From: Sarea resinae
Taxonomy: Eukaryota
Assembly (NCBI GenBank): GCA_026026165.1
Contig: JAPEUD010000046.1
Location: 186,001-206,399 of the forward strand
Direction: 5' to 3'
DNA: 20,399 bases
Shown: piece after piece, positions 106 through 19,073 of the stretch
Numbering within the stretch: the first letter of the stretch is position 1
Layout: the number at the start of each line of letters is the position of its first letter
The notes under the pieces: generated by a model
Told to the model about the DNA's origin: nothing
The model's database searches: none
The model's input: the letters and a program-made list of their open reading frames with translations, nothing else
Translations under genes and position numbers: made by a program

Positions 106-123
106 ACACACGCACACAGACAC

Positions 124-154
<31 letters not shown>

Positions 155-163
155 TACATACAC
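106..163. repeat. Compound CA / (CACATA)n microsatellite
   Basis: Six CACATA units at 121-156, flanked by CA-rich degenerate units. Confidence 0.9.
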
Positions 164-860: not shown

Positions 861-2365
861 TCAATAAGGATCCCACTCCAGTCGGCCCTCTAACGCATAA
901 CTCTCAAACGGCACTCCTCGCCACTTCTTCGTGCCATCCGGGGCCACGTCGTAGAAACGGGGCTCGAAACTGACGTTGGCCCATCCCTGGATCAGTCGCC
1001 GCCAGTAGCAGACCTCGGCCGCCGGCGTCAAGTAGCGCTCGCGAAACGTGCGCACGTTGTTCTCGGCGATCTTCTCGGCTTTCTTGTCGTCCTTGAGCAG
1101 CGCCTGGATGCTGGCTTCTAAGTCCTCAAAGTCCCGTCGCACCTTGACGTAGTTCTGTCCCGGGCCCGACGACGCCATCAGAGGCGACTGATGTTGCAGC
1201 CAATCCATGTCGTGGGCCACGATGACGGAGCGGCAATTCTGCAGGTATTTCAGCCGGCCCGAGTAGCTGTTGCCTTCGGTGTGCATGAGGTATTTGTATT
1301 GGCAATGCTCCGACATGGATTTCAGGTCCGTTGACATCGAGGACTTGTCGTGCCAGTCGAGCGCCTTGACATCGGCCCATGGTTTGCTGGCTGCCACGCG
1401 CACGAGCGCTTCGCGGAGGGGCAGCGACATCGTGGCACCGCGCCAGAGGAGCCGTGGAACTTTCTTACCCCAGGACCACGATGATGGCACGGAGGGATTG
1501 GGGGCTAGGGCATCGCTGGATTTATGATCGCCTCCATTCTGTCCTTCGTCACTGCCCTGCTCCATCTCGATAGCCTTTCGCTGCACCTCGCCATATGCGC
1601 CGACCTTCGTCTCCGGCCAGCTCCAGTACCCGAAATCAGGCATGAGCCAGGTCTGCCGATCTTCCGTCTTCCGCGCAAATGCCCATTGCGATTGTGGAGG
1701 CAGCCAGTCGTCGACGCTGAAGGTGAATTCGATGTTGGGGAGGGGCGTCGGCGAGGTGATGAGGGCGCGGTGCAGCGCGTGCAGGACCGCCATGCCGCGC
1801 GAGTAGATCTTGCCTTGTGTGCTGATTATGTAGAGCTGTTTTCGCCACGGGGCGCTGGCATTAGCTTGGCTGGCATTGGCTGTCATGGTAGCACCGATTG
1901 GAAACCAATTTGCATCGGAGAGCAATGCGTGCAGAGAGAGGTAGGATTTGAATGCAGTGGCCAAAAACTAACCTCTTGATCGAAGACCATGGCGCGCACA
2001 TATCCATTCCGTTTGGGAATCGCGTCTACCTCCTCAACTGTGATGTTCTTTCCCATGCGATCCTTGACGGCCCTCTCGACCTCCTCGAATAAGCCCGGGA
2101 AGGCGGCATCACATTCGGCCGGACTCAAGAGTAGATCCCTGGCATCGCGGCGATAGTCCCAGACCCCATCGAATCGTTGTCGAGGCTGGAATGGCTTGGG
2201 ATTCCTGAATTGCGGCGCAGCAGCAGCAGGGGCGCCGGGGTTGGAGCTGGACTGCAGACGATACGTCAGAGCCACTAGCACGAAAGCGAGGACCAGGATG
2301 CCCGTGATGAGTTGCGGCCGGAGCCTTCGTTGAAGGTGAAGGTCTTTGATCAAGGGGATTTGCAT
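861..2365 (-). CDS. Glycosyltransferase family 90 / CAP10-domain protein, 455 aa, 2 exons (2365-1973, 1835-861)
   Basis: N-terminal membrane anchor LITGILVLAFVLVALTY. GT90-type motifs NIEFTFSVDD, WLMPDFGYWSW, KLLWRG-like RLLWRGA and EHCQYKYLMHTEGNSYSGRLKYL. Phase-0 intron 1972-1836 (GTTAGT...GCTAAT...CAG) joins VFDQE to LYIIST in frame. Confidence 0.9.
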
Positions 2366-2674
2366 TTCATTTGATGGACTGATAGATGGTGTACGAGTAT
2401 GGGAATGGGATTGAACAATGATGTCGTTGAGGCTCTAGGGCTAGACTATGGGGCTAGGAATCTTGGCCAAGGTAGGCAGGCGGTGCGTTTGGCTTGGCGT
2501 GGGACGGCGCCTTTAGCGGGGCGGGAATGTGTGGCGCGTGAACATGAGGTTCGCGCAACGAGCATGAGATGGCAGTAACCCCAGTCATACAACCACAAGC
2601 ACGGTGGCAATCGACAGAGACGACGATGCGCAATCAATAGACTAGGCCCAGCGAGGTACTGGATATCCGGCGAT

Positions 2675-4271
2675 TCAGTAGCTACAATGACCGCAATACC
2701 CACAGCCTTCAGCTGAGCAAGCCGTGAAATCTGGCTCGGACGTGTCGGAGCCATTATCCCAGTCACGCAGCTTTTCTTCCGCTGATAGCCATCCATCGTC
2801 CGATCCGGCTTCCTGCTCCCTTTCCTTCTCATGGGATACATCATGTCCAGCGACCTTACCTAAACCACCTTCAAACTGTCTTGGCTTCTCGCCCTCTACC
2901 CAGTGCGCCTTGATATGAGGCAGAAGCGTGGCGTATCTGTCTGCCTGCTCCCGTATTTCGAGCACATCATGATCGACGCAGCGAACCTCGAGTCTCTCGC
3001 TGTCGCTACTCTTCGCAAAGCCGATAATCTTTCGGATGAGCGCTGTGAGTAGGCGAAGATTATGTTGATTTAACAGCTCCCAAGCGTCAATCTCCTTGCG
3101 GACATTGCGTATGCGAATGTCTTCGAAAGAGCCGGATTTGTGGTAGGCAACGATGAAATTGGGTATTTGTCTGACCCAAAGACGAGCAATCTGGTCAGAG
3201 AGCAAATCGTGATCCTTTCTCCAGGCGGAACGGGTCTTGAGCTCGAAAACCGCCTCCTGTGGGATTCGTCGCCCGCCCGTTTTGATCGTTAGCTCCTTTG
3301 CAGGCAAGGAAGGCTTCATGTCCAACGATGTAACAGCAAGCAGCGTATCGAAAGATGCGGGAATTGGTTCGTCGATGTTCGCTGTCGTCTGTGATAAGCT
3401 TGGCTGTTCTGGCTCGCCGGGCTCGGGGTCAGAGACAAGATCTTTCTGGTACCCATCGCTTTCGAACCGCACAAGAAAGCTCAGTCCGCCGAATTTGTAC
3501 CTTATAATGCGCTGGTGGAATTCCGATCCTTTGACGTCGGCGTCCCAAGTCGTATAAGCCTCGGGGAAACTATGTCCGTATCCTCGAACGTCCGGAATGG
3601 TCTCTGTTGGGGAATTTTCTCTCCGAACGAAGAAAACGGTATTCCCAACCATTTCGACGAGGAAACGAAAGGGCTTTGTATCCCTCTGGATGAAACGAAG
3701 TAGATTGCCGATGGTACTACCACACCCGAAGACGTCAATTGATGTCGTTGGGAAGCCTTCGTGTTCAGCGAGAAGGGCTCGAACAGCTGGCTCGATCGGA
3801 TAGCTGGGATAGCGAGCGGCATTTGGATCACGAAAGTAGGTTCCACTGTCTTCTTTGAGCGGGACGGCGGCGTGTAGTGGCGTCCAAGTTGGTGGTTTGC
3901 CTGCAGCGGCAATTAGCTGTGCCTTTGCTGGAGGAGAAAAAGGTGAACTTACCGGGAACGAGGATGGTAGGTTCCTTCTCGTTCAACCAGCTGTAGGAGG
4001 CGATGCACTCGCAGTCGGTGATCTTCGCCGGGCGCTCTCCTGGGCCATCCGAAGCTGCGAGGTCCTTGGTGCTCCATGTAGTTAAGACCGGGCCAAGCGG
4101 CGGTGATGGAGGGCGTTGAGGCGGCTCACTCCTCCCACGCCACGGCTGGCCCGGACGAGAAGTCGGCAGGGCATTGCCTCGACCCTTGCCCCGGCCAGAG
4201 TCATTGCTTCTGTATCCATTGCTTTGATGGCCCCTCGTACGCCACGGGTGTCCTGTCCCATAGGCAGACAT
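2675..4271 (-). CDS. Conserved fungal hypothetical protein, 514 aa, 2 exons (4271-3953, 3900-2675); putative Rai1/DXO-like PD-(D/E)XK nuclease fold
   Basis: Phase-1 52-nt intron 3952-3901 (GTAAGT...GCTAAT...CAG) gives ILVPG-KPPTWTP, then an open frame to TGA at 2677-2675. Motifs: ASYSW, DVFGCGSTIGNLL, FLVRFESDG, VFELKTR, RLWVRQIPNFIVAYHKSG. RG-rich N-terminus and a C-terminal CSAEGCGYCGHC. The gene model is well supported; the nuclease call is inference. Confidence 0.8.
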
Positions 4272-4764
4272 GGTAAAGAGATACTACGCAGTTCAACCGC
4301 GATGATCTCCGTCGTGGATGATTGATGTTGAATAGAACGGAACAGCAGAGAAGAGGGGAGATTTGCTCTCGTGCTGGTTTGCAGCCTGTTGCAGCCTGTT
4401 GCAGCCTGTTGCAGCCTGTTGCAGCATTGATACGGCACTGATAAGGCACAGCTGGAACGCATTTGTGTAGCACAGCCATTGGCACAGCCGTCTGTCTTCT
4501 GCCTTCGGCCTTCTGCCTGGTGTCGTGATGTTCTCGAGTGAATGGGTTGCTAACACTTTCCCTCCGCAATTACTTGAACCATCCTACATCCTACTTCACT
4601 GCTCCACCTCAGCCGTCTTTCGTCGTCATTGACCTCAACGTACCTCTTCTGAGGTCGTGTTTACCTTCCAATTGTCTACCTTTACTGAATCCCTTACCCC
4701 TCCACCCCTCCGTGACATCTAAGCGACGATCGGTACTACAAGGCAACAGCTACAGCTGCACCTC
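4272..4764. promoter_or_regulatory. Probable bidirectional promoter region (493 bp)
   Basis: Lies between divergent ATGs at 4271 (-) and 4765 (+). Pyrimidine-rich tracts precede each start on its own strand (about 4340-4365 on -, about 4580-4710 on +). Confidence 0.55.
4379..4425. repeat. 10-bp tandem repeat (GCAGCCTGTT), about 4.5 copies, in the divergent intergenic region
   Basis: Four perfect units at 4381-4420 plus partial flanking units. Confidence 0.9.
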
Positions 4765-7700
4765 ATGGCATCCTCTGCTTTAGATCAGCAATCGTCTCGG
4801 TCGGCAAGGTATTCCAAGTTCTTTGGCCAGATCCTCCACGGTAATCGGATCCTCAAAAATGCGGCAGACGCGAAGCTGTTCCTGGAAGCCATCTGCGACC
4901 AAGGCGACCCTGCAAACTGCGTCGAAAGAATCGTGGCGAGCTCTCCAGCTCTGGAGTCGCTGAGACTTGGCCTGAGGTTCGATACTTCCACTTCCTTTAT
5001 CAATGGAACAGTCGCACCATTTCTCAAATACCTGTCGAATCCGGCGGTGAAACAAATATGCAGTGGCCAGTTTCTCCAGCAGATCTTACGGATCGTCGTG
5101 GATCCTCCAACATTATGGGACGCCCTGCTCCAGTCATTCAAAGACCGAGTATTGACTCCAGACTCGGTTTATCCGTTTGCCTGGCTACTATCGGAACTCT
5201 TAGCCAGACCGGTGATCGACGTCTACGAGGATGCAAAATCGGTGACGACGGAACGCTCTCTTCTTGACAATCCATCCCACGAGGTGCGAGCATTTGGCAA
5301 TAAGATCCAGCATCTGTTGCTCATGCGCATTTCTGACACACCGGTGGAGGCGGACAATGGAGCCGGAGGACGTCATGATAACGACTTTGCGAATCATCGC
5401 GAGATTGCCGTCTTTCCTACTGCAGACGAGTTGACTTCTGCCGAAGAACCGTTCTATCGACGGGCAGAGGTATTGGGAGAAACGAAAGAGGAACATCGGG
5501 CCATCGTGCATTTAGACAACCAATTTCGTCTTCTCCGAGAGGAAATGTTGGGTGAATTTCGGAATGACCTCAAAATCGCCACGGGCAAGCAGAAAGGAAG
5601 ACGATCAAATCCGACGCTTCATAGACTGAGTCTACATGGCATTGATTGTGGAATTGAAAAGAAACGGAAACCCTGTACTTTGACTCTTCGCTGCGAAGCC
5701 GGACTCCCTCAGCTGTCCCGTCTCTCTCAATCTAAACGAAAGGCCTTTCTCGTCGACAATCGATCATTCTTGAGGCATCAATGTCTTGGTTGTTTGATGA
5801 ATGGAACTGAGATCATTGCCTGTGCTACTGTCGACAGGGACGAAGCGTTACTCATCGATAGCCCTCCAATCGTCTCGTTGCAATTCGCCGAAGAGGCTGC
5901 ATTTGAGAAAGCACTTCTCGCGATCAAGCTATGTGGAATGCTCGACTTTGTGATGGTTGATACAGCTATCTTTGCCTATGAACCAGTGCTCAAACGTCTC
6001 CAAGACATGACGGATCTACCTTTGGCCGAAGAACTATTGTCCTCAAACCATACACTCAAAATGCGAGACATGACCCCGCTTTTGGCTAATACAGTCCGAA
6101 GTATAAGAATGATGGGGAATGACGATTTTCAAGATCTTCTGGGTACTCCTATGCCTGTACAGCTTGACGAGTCACAAGCAGAGTCTCTACTAGCTGGATT
6201 GACCCAGACATTGAGCCTGATTCAGGGTCCTCCAGGTATGTTATACTTTTCTCGACTCTTCCATTAGCCTAACTTTATAGGTACTGGCAAGTCATTTATA
6301 GGCGCATTGCTTGCGAAAACCCTATTTGATTTCACTCACGAGACGATCTTGGTCATATGCTACACAAATCATGCACTTGATCAATTCCTCGAAGATCTCC
6401 TGGACATTGGAATCCCACCCGATGAAATGCTACGGCTCGGCGCAAAGTCTTCTGACCGAACAAAGTGTTTGAATATATCCGAGCAATCAGTTAGCTCCAA
6501 GCGCTCCAAGGCATCGTGGATGACTATTGACAGAATGAAAATTGAAACCAATGAGCTCGAGCACCACCTACTTCAAAGTTTCACGTCTTTTTCAAGATCT
6601 CGGGTCACAATCAACGAAATACTCGAGTACTTGGAATTCTCCGACCAGGATGCACATTTTTATGATGCCCTGAGTACGCCCGTGCAAGGAGATGGTATGA
6701 CTAGAGTCGGAAGGAAGGGTAGAGCCATTGGTCCTAATTACGTCTTTGAACGGTGGTCAAAAGGCGAAAATGCTGGTGTGTTTGCGAGCGAAAAATCACG
6801 AGAGCATGCTACGGTCTGGAAGATGGAAGCCTCTTCCCGACGAGCTTGTATAGACCGCTGGAGTCTTGCTTTGCTAAAAGAGCACATCAGCGGGATTCGC
6901 GGGCTGGTCAAACATTACAATTCGAGCCAGCGTCAATTGAAAGAAGTTTTTGAAGAACAGAACGCAGATATCATCAAACGTCGGCGCATCATCGGGTGTA
7001 CCACGACCGCCGCGGCGAAGTACACACGAGCACTTCAGGGGGCATCTCCAGGCGTGGTTCTTGTCGAGGAAGCGGGCGAAATCCTCGAGAGCCATGTCCT
7101 CACTGCCATGACGCCAGAGACGAAACAGTTGATTCTCATCGGAGATCATAAGCAACTTCGGCCAAAGGTGAACAACTACGCTCTCACAGTCGAAAAGGGG
7201 GATGGGTACAACCTCAACCAGTCCCTCTTTGAGCGGCTTGTTTTGTCAGGATTTCCTCACACAACGCTCAGTAAACAGCATCGCATGTGCCCCGAGATTT
7301 CTTCCCTTATTCGGCACTTGACCTACCCCGATTTACAGGATGCGCCCAAAACTTTGGGTCGTCCTCGTCTTCGAGGTCTCCAAGATCGAGTCATTTTCTT
7401 CGACCATGATCATCCGGAAGTTCAGGCAGAAGAAATATCTGACCGGCGAGATGAAGGCTCTAAAGTCAGCAGACAGAATCTTTTTGAAGTCGAAATGGTG
7501 CTTAAAGTCGTGCGTTATTTGGCACAGCAGGGCTATGGGACGGACAAACAGGTTATTCTTACCCCGTATCTTGGCCAACTACATCTTCTTCGTCTCCACC
7601 TCAGTAAGGACAACGATCCGATCTTGAACGACCTTGATTCATTTGATTTGGTGCGAGCCGGTCTGCTGTCTTCAGCAAGTGCCACGCAATCAAAGCGTCC

Positions 7701-10700
7701 TATCAGAATCTCTACAATTGGTAAATTACTAGGCTCTTTCCAGCAACACATGTGGCCACAACATTATGGACCGTTATGGCTAACTCTTGGTAGATAACTA
7801 TCAAGGAGAAGAGAGCGATATTGTCATTGCCACACTTACTCGTAGTAACGCGGTGTCCGACATTGGATTCATGGCCGCTCCACAGAGACTCAACGTTCTA
7901 CTATCAAGAGCTCGAGATGCCTTGATCATGATCGGAAACGCAAATACTTTCAGGACGAGCCGGAAAGGCAAAGAGTCGTGGGTCCCGTTCTTGGACTACC
8001 TCGGCAAGCACGACCACCTATACAGTGGAATACCAGTGCAATGTGAACGTCACCCGACAAAGAAGGCACTCCTTCAATGTCAACAGGATTTTGAGACAGT
8101 GTGTCCTGATGGTGGATGTTCTGCGCCTTGGTAAGTTGGATATACCGTATTAGTAGACGGACCACTGATGATGTTGAAAGTGGAAAAATCCTTGGCTGCG
8201 GTGTTCACGAGTGTCCTCAACGATGTCACCAATTGTCTGATCATTCGAAAGTCCCTTGCCAAAAGATACTGGACTCGGCCTGCCCACGGAATCACAAAAT
8301 TACCTGGTTTTGCCATCAGCAGCGTCCTGCCAGCTGCAAGGAATGCGACGATGAAAATCGCAAGCTGGAAAAGAAACGGCAGAGGGATCATGAACTCGAA
8401 GCCAAACGCCGAGCGAAGCAAGACGGGTATGCTCGACAATTGGCTGAATTACAGGACGAGATTGCCCACGAAAGATTCTTACGCAAGGATCAATTAGAGA
8501 GCAATGAGATGGAGAACAACCTGGCACAACACCGAGCTGATCTATCGAGACTAAAATCAGCCGAAAATCAACGCCCGCCAACTATGCCCGAGTCAATCAT
8601 GAATCAGCAGACTGGAGATGGCACGGAAAGCACGCGTTCAGATCACTCTAGAACGAGCCAATCTGAACCAGAACTCGATACTTCTCTCAATCACGCGAGC
8701 AAGCCTCTGAGCGTTCTGGACTCTGGCGCAAAAGACGAGTGGGAATATCAGAAAAAGTATCAGGGGGCAGACAATGATACTCTTGACACTCTTATGAGCA
8801 TGATTGGGCTAGAGGCCGTGAAGGATCAGTTTCTCTCGGTCAAAGCAAAGATTGATGTTGCTGTCCGCCAGAATGTCGACATGAAGCACGAGCGGTTTAG
8901 TGCTGCTTTGCTTGGCAATCCTGGAACGGGTGAGCTCTGACCAATTCCTGCGTTTATATTGGCTTATGATTCTAGGTAAAACCACCGTGGCTCGTCTTTA
9001 CGCCCAATTCCTAACATCCGTTGGCGCTCTACCCGGTAACTTCATTGTCGAGACAACTGGGTCGAGGCTTGCAAACGAAGGGGTATCCGGGTGCAAGAAG
9101 CACATCGAAGAGATCTTGAACAAGGGTGGCGGTGCATTATTCATTGATGAGGCGTATCAACTGGCTTCAGGCCAAGGCTATGGCGGAACCCAAGTTCTCG
9201 ACTTTCTTCTCGCCGAGGTGGAAATCCTCACCGGCAAAGTGGTCTTCATCTTAGCGGGCTACAACAAGCAGATGGAAGCATTCTTCGCCCACAATCCGGG
9301 GCTGCCGAGCCGATTCCCGCGCGAACTACAGTTCAAGGATTATGAAGATACCGAGCTTCTCCAGATCTTAGCATACCAGATTGACAAGAGATACAAGGGG
9401 CATATGAAGATCGAAGACGGCGTCGGTGGCCTCTACACCCGCATCGTCGCACGTCGGATTGGCCGGGGTCGAGGCCGCGAAGGATTTGGCAACGCTCGCG
9501 CCGTGGAGAATGTATTTGCCCGTATCTTAGAGCGACAAGCCAAGCGCCTCCGACAAATCAGAAGAGCTGGTGAGAGCTCAGATGATCTTCTGCTCACCAA
9601 AGAAGATCTACTCGGTCCGGAGCCTTCACTTGCTCTTAAGAATAACGCTTCCTGGTCGAAACTTATGCAGCTGACTGGGCTTGATACTGTCAAACAGTCA
9701 GTCCAGGCGCTATTGGATAGCATCCAATACAACTACCGCCGGGAGTTGGAGGAGAAACCGCTTGTTGAGTATTCTTTGAACAAAGTCTTTCTTGGTTCAC
9801 CTGGAACCGGCAAGACATCTGTGGCGAAGCTCTATGGCCAAATTCTCGCCGATATTGGCCTCTTATCTGCCGGCGAAGGTTTGTGTTTGAAGCTCACGCT
9901 TTCCGAGTACTGGATGCTAACGAGACCAGTGGTTGTCAAAAATCCATCCGATTTTGTCGGCGGAGTTCTCGGCGAATCGGAGAAAAACACAAAAGGCATC
10001 CTAGCATCTACTGCCGGCAAGGTGCTTGTTATCGATGAAGCATACGGACTCTATGGAAGCTCACAAACAGACCCATATAAAACAGCAGTCATCGATACAA
10101 TCGTGGCCGAGGTTCAGAGCACTCCCGGAGAAGACCGCTGTGTTCTTCTACTTGGATACAAGGATCAGATGGAAGAGATGTTCCAGAACGTCAATCCCGG
10201 ACTGACGCAAAGATTTGCCCTTGACTCGGCCTTTGTCTTTGAGGACTTTACCGATGCTGAATTACGAGAGATTCTCGACCTGAAGCTAGGTCAGCAAGGA
10301 TTCCAAGCGACCGACCAAGGCAAAAAGGTGGCTTTGGAAGTCTTACAGCGGGCACGAAACCGTCCACATTTTGGCAATGCCGGTGAAGTGGATATCCTTC
10401 TCGACGGCGCAAAATCCCGCCATCAGCAGCGCCTCTCTTCTGGAAGATTGGTTAGGGCAGGCATTCTCGAGCCACAAGACTTTGACCAAGACTTTGATCG
10501 TGCTAAACGTGCCGAGACCAACGTGCAGGCCTTATTTCAAGGTGTCGTGGGTTGCGAGGATATTGTGGCGCAACTAGAAGGGTATCAGCGGACCGCAGCC
10601 AACATGAAGGCGCGAGATATGGATCCTCGAGAGCAGATTCCCTTTAACTTTTTGTTCCGTGGTCCTCCTGGTCAGTATTATTGTCTTTTCGTAATATCTA

Positions 10701-11991
10701 CTAATGTCAGGTAGGAACGGGAAAGACAACGACCGCTCGAAGAATGGGCAAGGTGTATTATGACATGGGGTTTCTTGCTACCGCCGAGGTGGTGGAATGC
10801 TCTGCTACAGACCTGGTCGGCCAATATGTCGGCCAAACAGGGCCGAAAACACAGAAGCTGCTCGAGAAAGCACTGGGAAAGGTTCTTTTCATCGATGAGG
10901 CCTATCGCCTTGCAGATGGCCCTTTTGCTAAAGAAGCTATGGATGAGATTGTTGACTGCCTTACGAAGCCGAAGTTTGCGCAAAAGCTCGTTACTATTCT
11001 CGCAGGCTACGACGCCGATATTAATCGACTCATGTCTATGAATCCAGGATTAACCAGCCGCTTTCCAGAGACTGTCGTTTTCAGAAGTTTCAGTTCGAAA
11101 GAATGCGTGGAGCTCTTGACTAGATTGCTCCAGCAGAAAAAGATTGACGTTGGATTCTTCGAGCAGCCTTTTTCATCTCAAGGTATTCGACAGCGATTTG
11201 ACGAGCTTTCGAAACTAGCAAATTGGGCAAATGCCCGAGACGTCCAGACTCTGGGAAAAGCCATCTTCGGGAAGATGATCAAATCTGCCACCAAATCGCA
11301 AACCACTTTGGTTGTCTCAGGGGATGCTGTACTTGAGGAACTTGATTCTATGATATCGGAGCGGGCACACAGAGACCAGGACCGAGAGTCGATGGGGCTT
11401 CAACAGTTGCAGCTCTCTGACTACCCACTTGCTCCTCCACCTACTTTGTTCGACCGACCCCAAGTGAGGAAAACCGGTCAAACTACTACCACTGCAAAAT
11501 CCGAGGCCCCGCCTACTAAACCCATTACGGCCAATGGGGAGGAGCGAGACAGTGATGTAAGCGACCAAGTATGGGAACGCCTGCAACAAGACAAAGCCCT
11601 AGCCGAAGAACGAGAGAGGGAATTCGAAAATCTACGGCAGCAAGAACGAATGCTCAAAGAGTCGATAGCTGTATCTGACAAGGAGGAAGCCGCCAAGGTT
11701 GCCCTTGAAGAGGCGAATGCTGCTGCCGCTGCCGCCGAAGACGACGAGATGCGACGGCGTGAGGAAGCACGTCTCAAGCACGAGCTTGAACGACGAGCCA
11801 GAGAAGCAGCGCTTGACGAGATAAACCGGAAGCGAAAAGAGGAGGAGAGAAAGCGGGAGATGGAAGCCAAAGCGCAGAAGAAATTAAGGGATCTGGGCGT
11901 TTGCTGCGCGGGATTTCGATGGATTAAGCAGGACTCGGGATATCGATGCGCAGGCGGGTCTCATTTTGTCTCTAATGCCCAGCTTGGGTGA
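4765..11991 (+). CDS. ZNFX1-like SF1 (Upf1-like) helicase + NFX1-type Zn finger + three CbbX/CfxQ/SpoVK-type AAA+ domains; 2305 aa, 7 exons (4765-6235, 6281-7720, 7794-8130, 8181-8929, 8976-9878, 9930-10670, 10715-11991)
   Basis: Six GT-AG introns of 44-73 nt give a 6918-nt continuous frame. Helicase motifs: IQGPPGTGKS, CYTNHALDQFL, VEEAGE, LIGDHKQL, QSLFERL, QHRM, TPY, TIDNYQGEE, RLNVLLSRAR. Cys/His cluster at about 8040-8350 (CGVHECPQRCH). AAA Walker A/B pairs: GNPGTGKT/LFIDEAY, GSPGTGKT/LVIDEAY, GPPGTGKT/LFIDEAY, each followed by NPGLxxRF and GNAR/GNAG/ANAR sensor motifs. Confidence 0.92.
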
Positions 11992-12338
11992 TGATGACTA
12001 TGAAAGTCTATATGTTTTAGGTTAGTCATTGCCGTAAGGTTCAATTCAGCCCTAGAATATCCGTAACATATTTCCTTGCACGCCTTCCTATGTACAGCCT
12101 CAGAGATGGCGATTGGGAATTGCGGCGCAGGCTGTGTAGCAACAGTGTTGTCACCAGTAGAAGGAGGTATAAGTTCTCCTAGTCGCGCCTGCGATCCTTG
12201 TATTCCCCATGTGTGATGTGCATACCAGCACGACTGTGTCGGTTGCTCCGTCTTCGCCAAGTCTCCGCTACCACCTACTCAGAGTATACAGTCAGCATAG
12301 GCGATCGCGACGACTGAAGATGTCCAGTTGCACGCACG

Positions 12339-14146
12339 ATGTCTTCAAGGCGGAAGGGGACTTTCGCTGTTCATGGCGCCAACCAGGCAGGCAGAGCGTC
12401 CAAGGTCCCGACTCCAGGGCCAGCGACGCCGCGCAGTGCTGGGAGTGATGACTGCCACGAGCCGAACGAGATGCCCGATGAACTCAACAACGCGGTCGCT
12501 CGAGATGTTCGGAAATTTGACATCAGCTCTTTCCCATACACGCTCCCGCCGGCCATCATAGACACGGCGTCGAGGTACTTTCAACCGGAGCAGAAACGAG
12601 GCTTTACCGCCCTCCCGCTCAAGCCTGACCACCACAATCGGCCGCTGTGAATTGACGGCTGGGGGAAGCTTACTCTGGAGAACTTCCATCCGCTGGCGCC
12701 TCCGGTGCGAGACTTTTTGATTACGATTGCCGAGCCAACGTCACGACCAACATACCTGCACGAGTACAAGCTCACGACCCACAGTCTGTACGCGGCGTTT
12801 TCAGTCGGCCTGGATCCGCACGACATCATGGGAACTCTCGACCTGTTCCTTGAAGAATAAGATGCCGCCCAATGTTATCGAATACATTACACACTGTGGC
12901 AAGAGCTACGGCAAAGTGAAGATAGTGTTGAAGAACAACAGGTACTTTCTAGAGACGACGGATCCAGTGGTATTGCAGATACTGCTGAAAGACCCTGAAA
13001 TAGGTCCTTGCCGAGTCGAAGGCGCCGAGGAAATCACCACGAGCGCTCCAACGACGGTGGTAGAGAACCCGAGGGCAAAGGAGGCATCTACTGCATTATA
13101 TCTTGCATTGGGCGAAGAGGATGACGACAATGACAACGACAATGACCGACATGGCATTCATGCATTCCAGATTGCAGACGAAAAGGTGGGCACGGTCGCG
13201 CAGCGGTGCTTGGCTTTACACTACCCTGCGGTCGAGGAGTATGATTTCAGGAAGGACCATCTTAATGCGGATTTGAACATGGATCTGAGACTGGCGACCT
13301 AGATCCGGCCATACTAGGAACAGAGTCTTAGCAAGATATTCGGTAACGGTCGTGCAAAGAGTGGCATCATTGTCCTTCCTTGCGGAGCTGGCAAGACTCT
13401 GGTCGGCGTCACGGCTGCTTGCACGATTCGAAAAGGAGTTGTCGTTCTGGCCACTAACAACATGTCGGTAGTCCAGTGGAGGAACGAGTTTCTAAAATGG
13501 TCAAATTCAGCCCAGATGATATTGCCATCTTCTCGTCGGACAACAAGTCGCTGCTTACTGGGAATACCGGAATCATCATCACAACCTACTCGATGGTGAC
13601 AAACACACGAGAGCGTGCTCACGAATCGGCTGAGATGATGAAGTTCCTCCAAAGTCGGGAATGGGGCCTCATGCTTTTGGACGAAGTGCACGTGGTACCC
13701 GCAGAGATGTTCCGAAGGGTCATTGGCTCTGTCAAGTCTCATGTGAAGCTGGGCCTAACAGCTACGCTTCTTCGAGAAGATGACAAGATTGAGGATCTAA
13801 ACTTCCTGATCGGACCAAAGCTGTACGAGGCTAACTGGATGGAGCTGTCCCAGCAAGGTCACATTGCAAAAGTCCAATGTGCCGAGGTCTGGTGCGCCAT
13901 GTCGAGCGAGTTTTACGAGCAGTATATGCAGGCAACCAGCCGCTGCGGGAGGCGCCGAAGAGCGGGCTTCCGCCGATGGCAAGGAGAACGGCCGGCGCAC
14001 TGAAGGATCTCAGCGGTGGACAGGATATGGCGTACATTGAGCGGAACCAGAGCGCGAACAAGTCGATGAAGCGGAAGAGTAGCCCGCACAGCGACTTCTT
14101 CAAGTCTCTCAGGAGGGAGAATGAGAGGCGAAGAAAGTTGGCTTGA
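12339..14146 (+). pseudogene. SSL2: Pseudogene of the TFIIH helicase XPB/SSL2/RAD25
   Basis: Recognisable XPB blocks: DFLITIAEPxSRP, HEYKLTx[87 protein letters not shown] and C-terminal LSGGQDMAYIE. Lesions: TGA at 12648-12650, +1 frameshift at about 12849, TAG at 13300-13302 and 13315-13317, -1 frameshift at about 13506, and loss of the second RecA domain at about 13943. Confidence 0.93.
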
Positions 14147-14563
14147 GAATTCTGCCGGCGCCGAAGATTGGAACCGGGATCTAGATCGGAACGACTATAA
14201 TGCTCATTTTCTGCGGCGGTCGCTGGCATCGAAGCCAAAGCGGTGGATGGCCATATAGAGTGCCGAGAGCGTGAGCGTGCAAGCACCAAAAACCGAGACG
14301 GCGCAGACGGACGAAGATAACGACGGCGTGGTGTGCGCATACATTCTTTACTTTGGGTCATGAAGATTGCCGGCGAGGGCCTGGTCGCAAAGGAGATGTC
14401 CAGAGCCCAATGTCTGTACCAAGGAATGGCCAATACCCGGCCCTAGTAACCGGCAGGTTGAGTACGGCCAGCTCAGAATAAACACCGATAGAAGGCCCGT
14501 CGTGAATGCGCAACAGCAGGACAAAATAGGGATAGCTTGAAGCTTTGAGCATGCTCGAACGAA

Positions 14564-15636: not shown

Positions 15637-16337
15637 ATGGGTAAATCGCTGATCGCCTTCATCTGCATCCATGACATCTCCGCTCCGGTACGAAGATCTT
15701 CCTCGACCCCACCCTCAATCAGCTCGCTCATGATCTCATCATGCTCATTTTCCTCTGTCTCCTCTTCTGCTCGTTTCCATTCTCACCAGCGGAAACGATG
15801 TAATGCATCAGATTTCGAACGCTGCTGACAATTTCATTCCAGAGTCTCTCCGAAACCCTCACAGCCGCATACAATCAGAGCGACGAGTCCCCAGCGAGTC
15901 TGGTGCTCTTGACGGAGGACTCCCGATCGGCCCTGCAGCACTATACACAAGACTCGTTCTCACGCCCGCCTATAGGCCCCTTTGAATCTCCCTTTCTCGG
16001 CAAGAGCATTCAGGATGTGGCTGGGTTCCTGAACGACAACGCACACGGCACTATTGTCGAGCCGTCGCTGTTTTTCGTCGCGGATGAGCAGACCGCTAAA
16101 GACAACACACTACTCTTAGTGCAAGGGGCCCTAAAGTCGGGAACCCCAGATAATACAATCCAGACAGTACGGCTTGCGGCCGAGTTTGCCAACACAGAAG
16201 CCTTGGCAATATCAGTGGCCACCAAGGGGATCAATGAGTTGCAGACCTTACAGGATGGCGATGGCGTGTATCGGGGCGGGCCTAGGCATGGCGAGCCTCC
16301 GAAGAAGGGCGGTAAAGCGCCTCGGAAGCAGTTGTAA
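15637..16337 (+). CDS. Hypothetical protein, 181 aa, 2 exons (15637-15687, 15843-16337)
   Basis: Phase-0 intron 15688-15842 (GTACGA...GCTGAC...CAG) joins MGKSLIAFICIHDISAP to SLSETLTAAY..., which runs in frame into ORF 15903-16337. Protein-like motifs SPFLGKS and FFVADEQTAKDNTLLLV. An AT-rich 3' region follows. Confidence 0.72.
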
Positions 16338-16994: not shown

Positions 16995-18271
16995 ATGTTG
17001 TTTTTCGATAAAGTCCAACGTCGCGGCATTGTTCCGGCTGGGTGCATCGCCACTGTACTGGGCTGGGTTGCTGCCGCAAGTGAAGCACAACCCATTCCGG
17101 ATGGCGTTCTGGTCGTGCCAATCATCCGTATCGAAAATCAGTCGTCGTATGGCATGGAAAGTAGGTTGACCAACCCAAAACACTCTTGGCCAATGCCTAA
17201 TAGATGATCAGTTGGGGTAGGCAATCCGCCGCAGGTCAACATCCTCAAGCTCGACACCGGCAGCTCCACCATCTCCTTTCAAAATCCTCAAAGCAACGAA
17301 TGCCAGCAGTCCAACTCGCCATGCGCCTCGTATGGGAGCTTCGACAATTCTTCTTCATCGACGTCCAAGTTCGTGAGCAGTACTGGCTTCAGCGATCAAC
17401 TCATCGATCATGCTTCGGGTGGCTACCTCAATGATACCTTGCGTTTCGGCGACCAGGTGGTGGATGACATGACTTTTGGGATGCGAGATGTCGTCGGTGC
17501 ATCTTACGACATCCTAGCCCCCGATGCGGCCATTCTTGGTGAGATGCCAAAGCGCTTGATCATGGGTTTTACTTATTGATCGCAGGGTTGGGCCAGGACT
17601 GCTCCGACGAGACTTGCAGTGGCTATAACACGTTTCAGCAACAACTCTACAATAGAGGAATCGTCAACAATCGTGCTTTCGGCATGTACTTTGGTCGCGA
17701 CGAGCTAAATGCTACCGGAAGCCTCATCTTCTCGGGCTACGATCGTGCCAAGCAAGCCGATGACGGATTCACTCTGGATGTCGTGGATCCAGCCTCGTCG
17801 GACGCAAACAACGGCCCGTTCACCGTCAACCTCACATCGTATTCCACCGACATTCAGGGCAATCGGACAACAGTGCCTCTCGACAGCGGTTTCTCCACCC
17901 TGGTCGACACCGGCAACCCCAGGTGGGAGCTGCCGAGCAATGTCCTGTCTATCGTCTGGGACTATCTCAGCGTGAACACGTCCTTGACAGCTTACCAATA
18001 CGGACCATATACCGTCGACTGTAAATTCCGCCGTCCCACAAACGATACCTTGACCGTTGCTTTCACAGATACTAAAAGCATCACCGTGACAATGGACTCG
18101 CTCGTGACGCCGATCGATTCCAATGTCTGTGCCACGTTTGTCGGTCCCGGTCAGAACCTCGGAGATCCTTTTCTTCGCAGTGTATACACGATTTTCGATA
18201 TTGACCGTCACGAGATATCCTTTAGCAAGGTGGCTCACACGGATTATATGAATATTGCTCCGATTTCGTAG
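16995..18271 (+). CDS. Secreted pepsin-like aspartic protease (MEROPS A1), 392 aa, 3 exons (16995-17160, 17212-17538, 17586-18271)
   Basis: Splicing out 17161-17211 and 17539-17585 gives YGMEIGVGNPPQ, LKLDTGS, AILGLG, GSLIFSGYD, LVDTGN and LGDPFLRSVYTIFD. Both catalytic DTG motifs are intact, and a signal-like N-terminus ends AASEA. Confidence 0.9.
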
Positions 18272-18380
18272 TTTTTTTTCTAGTAGACCTTCTAGGTAGT
18301 GAACTATAATAAAGAGAGACTTTAATACTGCCTTGTATAATCGAGCAAATCTAGAGCCTCGATGAAATGAATTGTAAGGA

Positions 18381-18662
18381 GCGCTGCGCAAATAGTAGGC
18401 AAATAGCCATAGCGTAGAATAATTATAGTAGTCTTTAGATGGCACATGTAGGAGCAGGTTGCCTATTTAGTAGGGCTTGTAATATTCTACGTGAATCATA
18501 CCAGGATTTAGCTGTGAGGTGCGCTGCGCTATATAGTAGGCAAATAGGCATAGCCCGGACGAGCCGGGTTATAGTGGTCTTTTTGGATGGCTCACGTGGA
18601 ACAGGTTCGTCTATGTACTGGTCCTCATACCGATTACTAGATCTCGTAATATTCTACGTGAA
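18381..18662. repeat. Diverged direct duplication (copies about 18381-18495 and 18521-18662) in an AT-rich tract
   Basis: Shared blocks in the same order: GCGCTGCGC, ATAGTAGGCAAATAG.CATAGC, TTATAGT.GTCTTT, GATGGC, CAGGTT, GTAATATTCTACGTGAA. Confidence 0.8.
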
Positions 18663-19073
18663 ATTTAGGTTAGATTTGGAAATTTAAAGATTTTTTAATT
18701 ATCACTCTACAATTACATACTCTTTAGATAAGTTGAGAGGCTCTTTCTCTACATTATTTGATTACCTTTATTGAATTTCTCTTATATAAAATATTCTAAA
18801 ATCTCTCGGACTTCTAGCTATGGTAGAGTAGGCTGTCGATGACTAACATAGGGATGCTGCGCGTACCCGATGTCTAAAGAAGTGATGCTTGACGATGATT
18901 GCCAGTGGGCACTGTTTTGTAAATATACTGAACGCTGATTCCAAGTGAACCAGCGTCGCTATGTGGATATATAACCTCATTGCTACAACCATTACTGTAG
19001 GATAGGGCTTGATGGCCTGCGCCACCTGCGCCTCGCCCCTGCGGCACCCCTTTGTCCGTAGCAGCCCTCACAT

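Follow-up and report, generated by a model that had tools for sequence, protein, structure and literature searches.

A conserved divergent gene pair of Pezizomycotina encoding a ZNFX1-type helicase with three AAA+ modules and a DXO/Rai1-fold protein

The divergent gene pair and its conservation

The window analysed here is the whole stretch of 20,399 nucleotides that makes up the final 20.4 kb of a Sarea resinae chromosome, and it carries two spliced genes, gene A and gene B, which point away from each other and constitute a genuine, conserved, divergently transcribed two-gene unit across Pezizomycotina, in at least six classes. The gene models were assembled from stop-to-stop open reading frames (ORFs) and GT..AG junctions. 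Gene A lies on the forward strand at 4765..11991, stop codon included, and its seven exons (4765-6235, 6281-7720, 7794-8130, 8181-8929, 8976-9878, 9930-10670 and 10715-11991) and six introns encode a protein of 2305 residues. Gene B lies on the reverse strand at 4271..2675, also with its stop codon, and encodes 514 residues in two exons (4271-3953 and 3900-2675) separated by a 52-nt intron (3952-3901). All seven introns of the two genes are of the GT..AG type with lengths of 44-73 nt, and the spacer between the genes (4272..4764), which measures 493 bp from ATG to ATG, is presumed to be a bidirectional promoter. The spliced models are identical, letter for letter, to the deposited Sarea resinae proteins M1819_004656 (A, 2305 residues) and M1819_004655 (B, 514 residues), whose locus tags are consecutive in a metagenome-assembled genome; the original prediction, made from the DNA letters alone, had thus drawn the two intact spliced genes and their 493-bp spacer correctly.

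The adjacency of the two genes is retained well beyond Sarea, which belongs to the class Sareomycetes. When locus tags were compared between two independent lists, the best 120 matches of A and the best 120 of the 1055 matches of B, consecutive A/B tags were found in at least eight genomes (Sarea, Psora, Trichoglossum, two Trypethelium, Teloschistes hypoglaucus, Bogoriella and Scytalidium). The seven non-Sarea genomes span five classes, with Trypethelium and Bogoriella placed in Dothideomycetes. At least 19 A/B pairs lie on contigs of identical size in the two lists, one of them a 12-kb Glonium contig. A metagenome scan with the B alignment returned 80 loci in 61 distinct groups, of which 37 have at least 2 kb of sequence upstream of B, and a divergent A orthologue is present upstream of B in 33 of these 37 (38 of 44 when at least 1 kb is required). 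The A match starts at query residues 1-30, and the gap between the first high-scoring segment pairs (HSPs) of A and B is 392-1269 bp, with a median of 629 bp. L062, the most divergent of the paired loci, matches an Exophiala xenobiotica protein at 96% identity and therefore adds Eurotiomycetes to the classes; its Exophiala-like character also led us to reject the idea that the pair reaches Basidiomycota through this locus. The homologues are thus linked, as the conserved divergent adjacency proposed at the outset would have it. The unit seems to be limited to the two genes, as no flanking ORF family occurs in more than 4 of 42 loci, and the larger clusters of flanking ORFs were rejected as additional conserved genes, being alternative-frame ORFs over A and B.

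Query-anchored trees of the two proteins were computed for 43 pairs, 26 from metagenome loci and 17 from named genomes, leaving out loci that cover less than 70% of A or less than 80% of the B core, Clohesyomyces and the P0106/P0212 pair. The patristic distances in the two trees correlate with a Mantel r of 0.85, a value reached by none of 2000 permutations, and the deep clades are common to both trees, including that of the divergent L062, L064, L069 and L071, so that the anticipated congruence of the A and B trees was indeed observed. The pairs of Glonium, Teloschistes hypoglaucus and Scytalidium (Leotiomycetes) cluster together in both trees, against taxonomy as far as Glonium is presumably a member of Dothideomycetes and T. 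hypoglaucus one of Lecanoromycetes; a paralogous lineage of the pair, its transfer as a unit and assembly contamination are all possible origins of this cluster.

The spacers also share a short sequence. The 8-mer CAAGGCTG occurs in 19 of 39 A-B spacers, whereas 500 first-order Markov simulations gave 1.5 on average and never more than 6, and its density of 0.70 per kb in the spacers is approximately 11-fold higher than the 0.064 per kb of the remaining locus sequence. Many instances read ACAAGGCTGAG. The Sarea spacer contains no exact CAAGGCTG; it has four exact tandem copies of CAGCCTGTTG at 4382..4421, that is, 111-150 bp upstream of the B ATG, a copy number reached in none of 100 shuffles, and the reverse complement of CAGCCTGTTG differs from CAAGGCTG by one inserted base. 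We regard CAAGGCTG as a candidate regulator-binding site, judging from its enrichment in the spacers.

Domain composition of the two proteins

Protein A is composed of an ARM-repeat domain, a superfamily 1 (SF1) helicase, a Cys/His array, a coiled region, three AAA modules, a charged coiled region and a Cys/His knuckle, in this order. Pfam recognizes AAA_11 and AAA_12 in the SF1 helicase, PF00004 three times and AAA_lid_6 on two of the AAA modules, and four Walker A and three hhhDE Walker B motifs are present, which agrees with the earlier description of A as an SF1 helicase joined to three AAA+ modules. Orthologues from different classes, and from Basidiomycota as well, are 48-64% identical to the Sarea sequence over 2300 residues; in an alignment of 56 of them, four of which are from Basidiomycota, column identity averages 55%.

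The N-terminal region (residues 21-193, 4825..5343) is predicted to be an ARM-repeat domain of the ZNFX1 type. An AlphaFold model of residues 1-490, built from a 27-sequence alignment with a predicted local distance difference test (pLDDT) score of 85, was compared with 48,161 representative chains of the PDB, and the best match to the region is 9eve_B, the ARM domain of human ZNFX1 (Z 11.2, root-mean-square deviation (rmsd) 3.5, 152 of 173 residues aligned). This Z value lies in the range of chance matches between helical repeats, other ARM/HEAT proteins giving Z 9-9.5, and only the fold class of the modelled region, i.e. an ARM fold, can be regarded as certain. The second-best structural match of the same model is the ZNFX1 helicase core (9q9z, Z 10.9). 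Between the two domains lies the motif GGRHDND (residues 201-207, 5365..5385), which is invariant in both the 56-orthologue and the 27-sequence alignments.

The UPF1-like SF1 helicase core (residues 207-1030, 5383..7972) is assigned to the ZNFX1 type by Pfam, PDB and structural comparison. Its best PDB match by sequence is ZNFX1 (9q9z, E 1.9e-80), with Aquarius and UPF1 at approximately 1e-27, and residues 207-490 align to ZNFX1 416-708, the ZNFX1-specific region upstream of Walker A. The Walker A motif itself, GPPGTGKS (residues 488-495), is split between GPPG and TGKS by intron 1 (6236-6280). At the site of this Sarea intron, query residue ~491-497, tblastn matches to A are interrupted in at least 20 loci, which suggests from sequence comparison that the intron position within the Walker A motif is old and conserved. 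The A genes of L062 and L022 are free of introns, with single HSPs over residues 2-2304 and 7-2302, respectively. The Cys/His-rich region that follows (residues ~1050-1140, 8030..8352) stands at the position of the NFX1-type fingers of ZNFX1 and contains about 15 Cys/His columns conserved in the 56 orthologues; no Pfam zinc-finger model reaches threshold on this array, and some database records call A orthologues 'NFX1-type zinc finger-containing protein 1'.

The three tandem CbbX-type AAA+ modules (residues ~1291-2085) are located at ~8803-9658, 9686-10519 and 10547-11328, each with a Walker A motif GxPGTGKT and a Walker B motif hhIDE. Their best PDB matches are CbbX (3zuh/3syk, E 2e-31) and EccA1 (9lur, E 1.5e-30). 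In the 56 orthologues the helicase Walker A and the Walker A Lys of every AAA module are invariant, as is the Asp-Glu pair of Walker B in modules 1 and 3, while that of module 2 is retained in at least 90%; an Asn and an Arg following the Walker motifs are conserved in each module. A charged coiled region (11521-11883) precedes the C-terminal Cys/His knuckle (residues 2275-2305, 11896..11988), the conserved residues of which in the same alignment are G2275, C2277, G2280, W2283, G2289, Y2290, R2291, C2292, G2295 and H2297. The knuckle has no Pfam match at E values up to 10, and only a chance match to Her-1 (E 0.67) in the PDB. Taken together, the domain order, the PDB and structural matches to the ZNFX1 helicase core and ARM domain and the conserved Walker motifs establish that A is a ZNFX1-type protein to which approximately 800 residues of CbbX-type AAA+ modules have been added, and the ZNFX1 assignment made in the original prediction is upheld.

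Protein B consists of an RG-rich N-terminus, a folded core and a disordered C-terminal region. An AlphaFold model based on 120 sequences has pLDDT values mostly above 90 for residues ~50-445, and the N-terminus, residues 258-310 and the last 65 residues are disordered. The RG-rich stretch (residues 1-50, 4122..4271) is predicted to be disordered, with pLDDT below 50 for residues 1-40; the first 60 residues contain 9 Arg and 11 Gly, and the stretch is present but variable among B homologues. The RG-rich tail that had been described for B is therefore misplaced, since the RG stretch forms the N-terminal 50 residues and the C-terminus is an acidic linker with a Cys-rich motif.

The core (residues 60-445, 2885..4094) has the DXO/Rai1 fold according to AlphaFold, Foldseek and VIA-align. 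Foldseek ranks mouse DXO, Arabidopsis DXO1 and S. pombe Rai1 first, with E values of about 1e-14 (2e-14 to DXO/Rai1, probability 1.0). Against 24 Rai1/DXO entries, VIA-align gives Z 23-25 with an rmsd of 3.3-3.7 Å over 283-313 aligned residues; the cap-binding domain of eIF3d follows at Z 15-16.5, and any other fold at 5.1 or lower. The earlier guess of a Rai1/DXO-like enzyme is thus correct at the level of the fold. The ESM Atlas, which labels the B family PF29557, a label newer than the Pfam copy we searched, agrees with this placement. The family is sizeable, with 1055 matches in a word-indexed search and 2718 clusters at E values up to 1e-3 among 1.84 billion representatives, and only close family members are found among the best 150 of these clusters. 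The homologues are 41-55% identical, and the named matches listed are all from Pezizomycotina. Many records of the family are named 'geranylgeranyl pyrophosphate synthetase', yet the proteins have the DXO/Rai1 fold and no prenyl-synthase domain, so that the name is evidently a propagated misannotation.

The E-x-D...ELK motifs noted earlier in B are present as E253-S-D255 (3455-3463) and E326-L-K328 (3236-3244), and Q351 (3167-3169) is a third conserved element; a disordered insertion (residues 258-310, 3290-3448) lies between the two motifs. In DXO/Rai1 enzymes six motifs are described, I (Arg), II (G-Phi-X-Phi-E), III (EhD), IV (EhK), V (KX4-Phi-hQ) and VI (GhR), of which III and IV provide the metal ligands and the catalytic Lys (PMC4513879). 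Among 120 B homologues, D255 is kept in 119, with Glu in the remaining one, position 326 is occupied by Asp (114) or Glu (5), K328 is present in all 120 and Q351 in 119. This pattern agrees with motifs III and IV and with the Gln of motif V. R175 or R185, and E189, E201 or E220, are the candidates for motifs I and II, respectively, with the exact patterns unmatched; Q351 ends a helix (339-350) that has no Lys seven residues earlier, and G363-x-F365 replaces the GhR of motif VI.

The C-terminal region of B (residues 446-514, 2678..2884; pLDDT below 50) begins with an acidic disordered linker and terminates in the conserved motif D-[FY]-T-A-C-S-x(2,3)-C-G-Y-C-G-x-C-x-Y-COOH (2678-2731). Among the alignment rows with a residue at the respective position, Cys is found in 115 of 117 at C501, 115 of 115 at C506, 114 of 115 at C509 and 115 of 115 at C512, and the motif coincides with the end of the ORF in 22 of 43 loci scanned. 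The tail is missing in one clade of paired B proteins (L042, L049, L052, L062, L064, L069, L071, L077 and L079); in L062, for instance, B (9553-11086, forward strand) ends in ...DADYLKF. A short ORF in L027 (15904-16065, forward strand), located 4.5 kb downstream of B and ending in ...DFTACSADTCGYCGRC.., was considered as a second tail-bearing family and rejected, since it looks like a partial duplicate of the last exon of B.

Outside the A-B module, TTAGGG telomere repeats occupy ~20276-20399 and serve only as context. The pair lies 8.3-17.6 kb from them, consistent with the original statement that it is within about 18 kb of the telomere. Because the pair is far from contig ends in other fungi, e.g. 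at 154-175 kb of a 345-kb contig, its place near the Sarea telomere is incidental. On the telomere side of the pair, ~6-8 kb from the repeat, there are ORF pieces of an XPB/ERCC3 (TFIIH)-like helicase (12721-14000, forward strand; ORFs ~12318-14442) with matches to Helicase_C_3, ResIII and ERCC3_RAD25_C. We take this gene from its family to be a housekeeping gene, an unexpected type of neighbour at a chromosome end. A DUF6924 ORF (15804-16334, forward strand) and a piece of an aspartyl-protease ORF (17543-18268, forward strand) are located nearer to the telomere, and a Glyco_transf_90 ORF (864-1967, reverse strand) lies downstream of B. An (ACACAT/ACATAC)n simple repeat is found near the start of the window (113-160), and GGTAACCCCCC-type repeats and a (GTCGTT)n microsatellite (20113-20180 and 20204-20275) directly precede the TTAGGG array. 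The GC content falls to 0.41 at ~18000-19000.

Proposed function and competing explanations

It seems rather probable, though by no means assured, that A and B form a functionally coupled and co-inherited module for the surveillance and decay of RNA 5' ends. The two genes are probably co-regulated; with the shared spacer acting as a bidirectional promoter, both proteins would be made together. B, aided by its RG-rich N-terminus, would engage RNA 5' ends and remove aberrant or missing caps and/or degrade the RNA in the 5'-to-3' direction, as DXO/Rai1 enzymes do, and a pyrophosphohydrolase activity is also possible. A would be an RNA-activated 5'-to-3' translocase that unwinds structured or double-stranded RNA, and its AAA+ modules might strip or remodel bound proteins so that the RNA reaches B, or might remodel B itself, the two proteins acting jointly on the same RNA. 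ZNFX1 is described to dimerise on RNA through its ARM domains (PMC13710534). With three AAA modules per chain, it may be speculated that two A chains could form a six-module ring. The target could be either defective transcripts of the cell or non-self RNA from mycoviruses or transposons.

Several observations weigh against this explanation. At the sequence level, B has no Pfam match and none of 40 homologues matches RAI1 (PF08652) at E values up to 10, for which reason B is a separate sequence family within the DXO/Rai1 fold superfamily; a 120-sequence profile finds nothing in the PDB but a chance match to PurH (E 2.4). The mapping of motifs II-V onto B relies on pattern, order and predicted strand positions rather than on residue-level superposition. 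E253 is kept in 96 of the 120 homologues and replaced in 24 (Gly in 11, Ala in 7 and other residues in 6), and judging from this substitution the members without E253 may be weak or inactive enzymes. The partnership is not universal either. No basidiomycete B is found among the B matches, though four Basidiomycota carry A, so that A evidently can exist where B was not seen. B occurs without A in four of the 37 informative loci (L011, L014, L024 and L074); these are scattered among paired sequences in the B tree, retain the catalytic-type residues and look like sporadic rearrangements or extra copies. In L077, B (10263-11336) is divergent to a short partner (5596-9450, reverse strand) that starts at the finger region, query residue ~1039, and runs through the three AAA modules to the C-terminus, with no ARM domain or helicase; the AAA half of A may thus be the part tied to B. 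In L018, the partner (4595-6218, reverse strand) of B (6729-8136) matches only A residues 1-514, with a further 4.6 kb upstream devoid of A similarity, and may represent a truncated gene, an insertion or an assembly join. Moreover, the agreement of the A and B trees is a sign of co-inheritance and not of interaction, since vertical inheritance alone predicts it. The CAAGGCTG-bearing loci are partly related, with three near-identical and approximately eight Pleosporales-like, and the number of independent cases is accordingly smaller.

Some leads concern expression. Contigs of a wood-decay metatranscriptome map to 2621-3361, the 3' part of B (each with 2 mismatches), and to 11394-11544 and 11826-12084, the 3' part of A (the latter with 15 differences). 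A single metatranscriptome run contained sampled words, 7% of them, and it yielded four contigs, none of which spans a splice joint; these RNA-library contigs are weak evidence and no proof of transcription. In Cryphonectria parasitica, a table of 73 genes changed in both sectored mutants includes JGI 342243, a 'putative geranylgeranyl pyrophosphate synthetase protein', which is consecutive with JGI 342244, 'putative aaa family', a gene starred as affected by the hypovirus CHV1 and chosen for quantitative reverse transcription PCR (PMC6530638, Table 2). The two entries fit B and A by name and numbering and are candidate orthologues, which we treat as a lead.

A narrower version of the explanation, which is that of the original prediction, takes A and B as a dedicated innate-immune pair induced by and directed against mycoviral or transposon RNA, the fungal equivalent of an animal ZNFX1 joined by an effector of the DXO/EOL-1 type, and this we hold only as a tentative possibility. 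Human ZNFX1 is presented as an interferon-induced, RNA-activated helicase and E3 that restricts RNA viruses (bioRxiv 10.1101/2025.09.05.674436; PMC13710534), and the C. elegans DXO homologue EOL-1 as a member of the intracellular pathogen response (bioRxiv 10.1101/2025.03.10.638824); owing to these animal ZNFX1 and nematode EOL-1 precedents, a role against viral or other foreign RNA is attractive and, by analogy, plausible. The conserved promoter element suggests inducible control, and the CHV1 mark on JGI 342244, the candidate A orthologue of C. parasitica, points the same way. The A helicase exon also hits MkoA, from the Mokosh defence system of bacteria, with an E value of 3.9e-30, a match that is, however, expected from any UPF1-like helicase. 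Against an immune pair also speaks the slow evolution of both proteins (A 48-64% and B 41-55% identical), without the rapid diversification typical of arms-race genes, and this slow evolution fits a conserved surveillance pathway equally well. The near-constant presence of A beside B, wherever enough upstream sequence is at hand, is a further point against an immune pair. Within the coupled module, a dedicated antiviral or anti-transposon role is tentative to about the same degree. Slightly less likely is the most elaborate form of the idea, namely an ancient, Pezizomycotina-wide module of innate RNA immunity in which all of the following would apply. By joining a ZNFX1-type helicase to a triple AAA+ unit, A would hold in one polypeptide both kinds of nucleotide-driven engine known from ZNFX1 and RNF213, which in animals are core interferon-stimulated genes; it would recognize uncapped, mis-capped or double-stranded non-self RNA and hand the 5' end to the DXO-like B; a single promoter would activate both genes jointly via the conserved CAAGGCTG; and the Cys-rich C-termini of A and B would mediate coupling or E3-like chemistry.

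Other explanations assign B a different task, or the pair none in common. It is unlikely, but conceivable, that B is a client or regulator of the AAA+ motor of A, which would grip its C-terminal tail much as CbbX pulls the C-terminal tail of the Rubisco large subunit, or else an eIF3d-like adaptor binding 5' ends or caps. The tail is almost invariant (Cys in 115 of 115 at two positions) yet predicted to be disordered, as expected of a docking peptide, the AAA modules are of the CbbX type, and the L077 partner retains just the fingers, the three AAA modules and the C-terminus; eIF3d, moreover, has the fold of B, and E253 is missing from 24 of 120 homologues. A purely structural adaptor can hardly account for the retention of D255, D/E326, K328 and Q351 in 119-120 of 120 homologues, though, a whole clade of paired B proteins has no Cys tail at all, and B is far closer to Rai1/DXO than to eIF3d (Z 25 versus 16). 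That the adjacency is structural only, two unrelated genes being held together by a hard-to-split bidirectional promoter with no joint function, appears to us very unlikely. Divergent pairs with shared promoters can persist by constraint alone, and the arrangement was lost in 4 of 37 loci; it survives, however, in at least six classes while all other neighbours change, the families of A and B both act on RNA, and the deep clades of their trees match down to that of L062, L064, L069 and L071. Finally, the original prediction had framed the locus as subtelomeric and related to incompatibility or cell death. A toxin-like, cell-death or heterokaryon-incompatibility pair would suit the position 8-18 kb from the Sarea telomere, and nuclease-plus-NTPase pairs do occur in conflict systems. 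This framing found no support and is extremely improbable, given the inner contig positions of the pair in other fungi, the high conservation of A and B, in which no hint of allelic polymorphism was noticed, the XPB/ERCC3-type gene between the pair and the telomere and the result that no HET, HeLo, NACHT/NB-ARC or similar Pfam domain is found in any exon of either gene.

The coupled surveillance and decay module is of interest for several reasons. ZNFX1 and DXO-family enzymes are central to RNA immunity and quality control in animals, and their fungal relatives are almost unstudied. A head-to-head pair that spans classes offers a genetic handle and yields the prediction of a ZNFX1-type helicase acting together with a 5'-end nuclease, and CAAGGCTG is a candidate cis-element for finding the regulator. 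A module aimed at mycoviral RNA would give fungi a second antiviral layer in addition to RNA interference, which matters for biocontrol based on viruses, whereas one aimed at self RNA would amount to a pathway of RNA quality control peculiar to this lineage. At minimum, the widespread 'geranylgeranyl pyrophosphate synthetase' annotation error is corrected.

Relation to known systems

No description of the pair, of a fungal helicase-AAA variant of ZNFX1 or of the DXO-like family of B was found in the main texts of the open-access papers searched, in line with the original view that no system of such composition has been characterised. What appears to be undescribed is the conserved arrangement of the two genes, together with the ZNFX1-AAA+ fusion and the tailed DXO-like partner; the components come from known superfamilies.

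The bacterial Mokosh system follows the same two-gene logic of a helicase (MkoA) plus a nuclease (MkoB), and it is MkoA that the helicase exon of A hits, as mentioned above. Mokosh is prokaryotic and, unlike A, has no AAA+ modules. MkoB is a PLD-type nuclease, in contrast to the DXO fold of B, and B matches no PADLOC model; on these grounds a Mokosh-like identity of the pair was rejected. EOL-1 of C. elegans and its paralogues belong, like B, to the DXO family and are linked to the pathogen response and to surveillance of RNA 5' ends, and unlike for B no helicase partner is reported in the portion of that preprint available to us (bioRxiv 10.1101/2025.03.10.638824). The nearest non-fungal ESM Atlas cluster to B is likewise from nematodes, with 215 members, 49% of them RAI1 (TM 0.62/0.78), which is a lead rather than an alignment.

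With DXO, Rai1 and Dxo1, B has in common the fold over about 300 residues and the residues that fit motifs III, IV and the Gln of V, and like Rai1 in the Rat1-Rai1 pair it seems to be the partner of a nucleic-acid enzyme far larger than itself. B differs from these proteins in that it matches neither Pfam RAI1 nor any PDB chain by sequence, and in that it adds the RG-rich N-terminus, a disordered insertion of 50 residues that separates motif III from motif IV, and the Cys-rich tail. Its partner, furthermore, is a helicase-AAA+ giant instead of the Rat1/Xrn2 exonuclease, and the link between the two is genomic, via the divergent promoter.

Human ZNFX1 consists of an ARM domain, a helicase core, twelve zinc fingers and a C-terminal E3 module in the available description (PMC13710534). 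A follows the domain order of animal ZNFX1 from the ARM domain through the UPF1-like helicase core to a Cys/His array at the place of the fingers. This array is shorter than the twelve motifs of the human protein, and between it and the C-terminus A inserts the three CbbX-type AAA+ modules (~800 residues). The catalytic Cys and His of the RZ-domain E3 of ZNFX1, C1860 and H1881, are 21 residues apart (bioRxiv 10.1101/2025.09.05.674436). The knuckle of A stands at the RZ position with C2277 and H2297 20 residues apart; since it matches no Pfam model or PDB chain by sequence, an E3 function of the knuckle is only a lead from residue spacing, and a Z-RING/RZ E3 module was not recognised in A.

Like A, RNF213 is a giant with concatenated AAA+ modules beside zinc-binding modules. 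The core of RNF213 is a dynein-like ring of six AAA modules, and the protein is interferon-induced and controls an RZ-type E3. In A the AAA modules are of the CbbX type and three in number, and no RING, CTD or RZ was detected, the homology being compared at the AAA+ level only. Both RZ-type E3s, ZNFX1 and RNF213, are stated to be regulated by nucleotide-driven modules (bioRxiv 10.1101/2025.09.05.674436). For the three AAA modules of A, the best sequence matches are AAA+ proteins of the CbbX/EccA1/SpoVK type with AAA_lid_6 lids. Such ATPases are single-module proteins that form homo-hexamers. In A, by comparison, three modules are concatenated and fused to a helicase, a naturally occurring combination of two kinds of motor that lends itself to work on mechanism.

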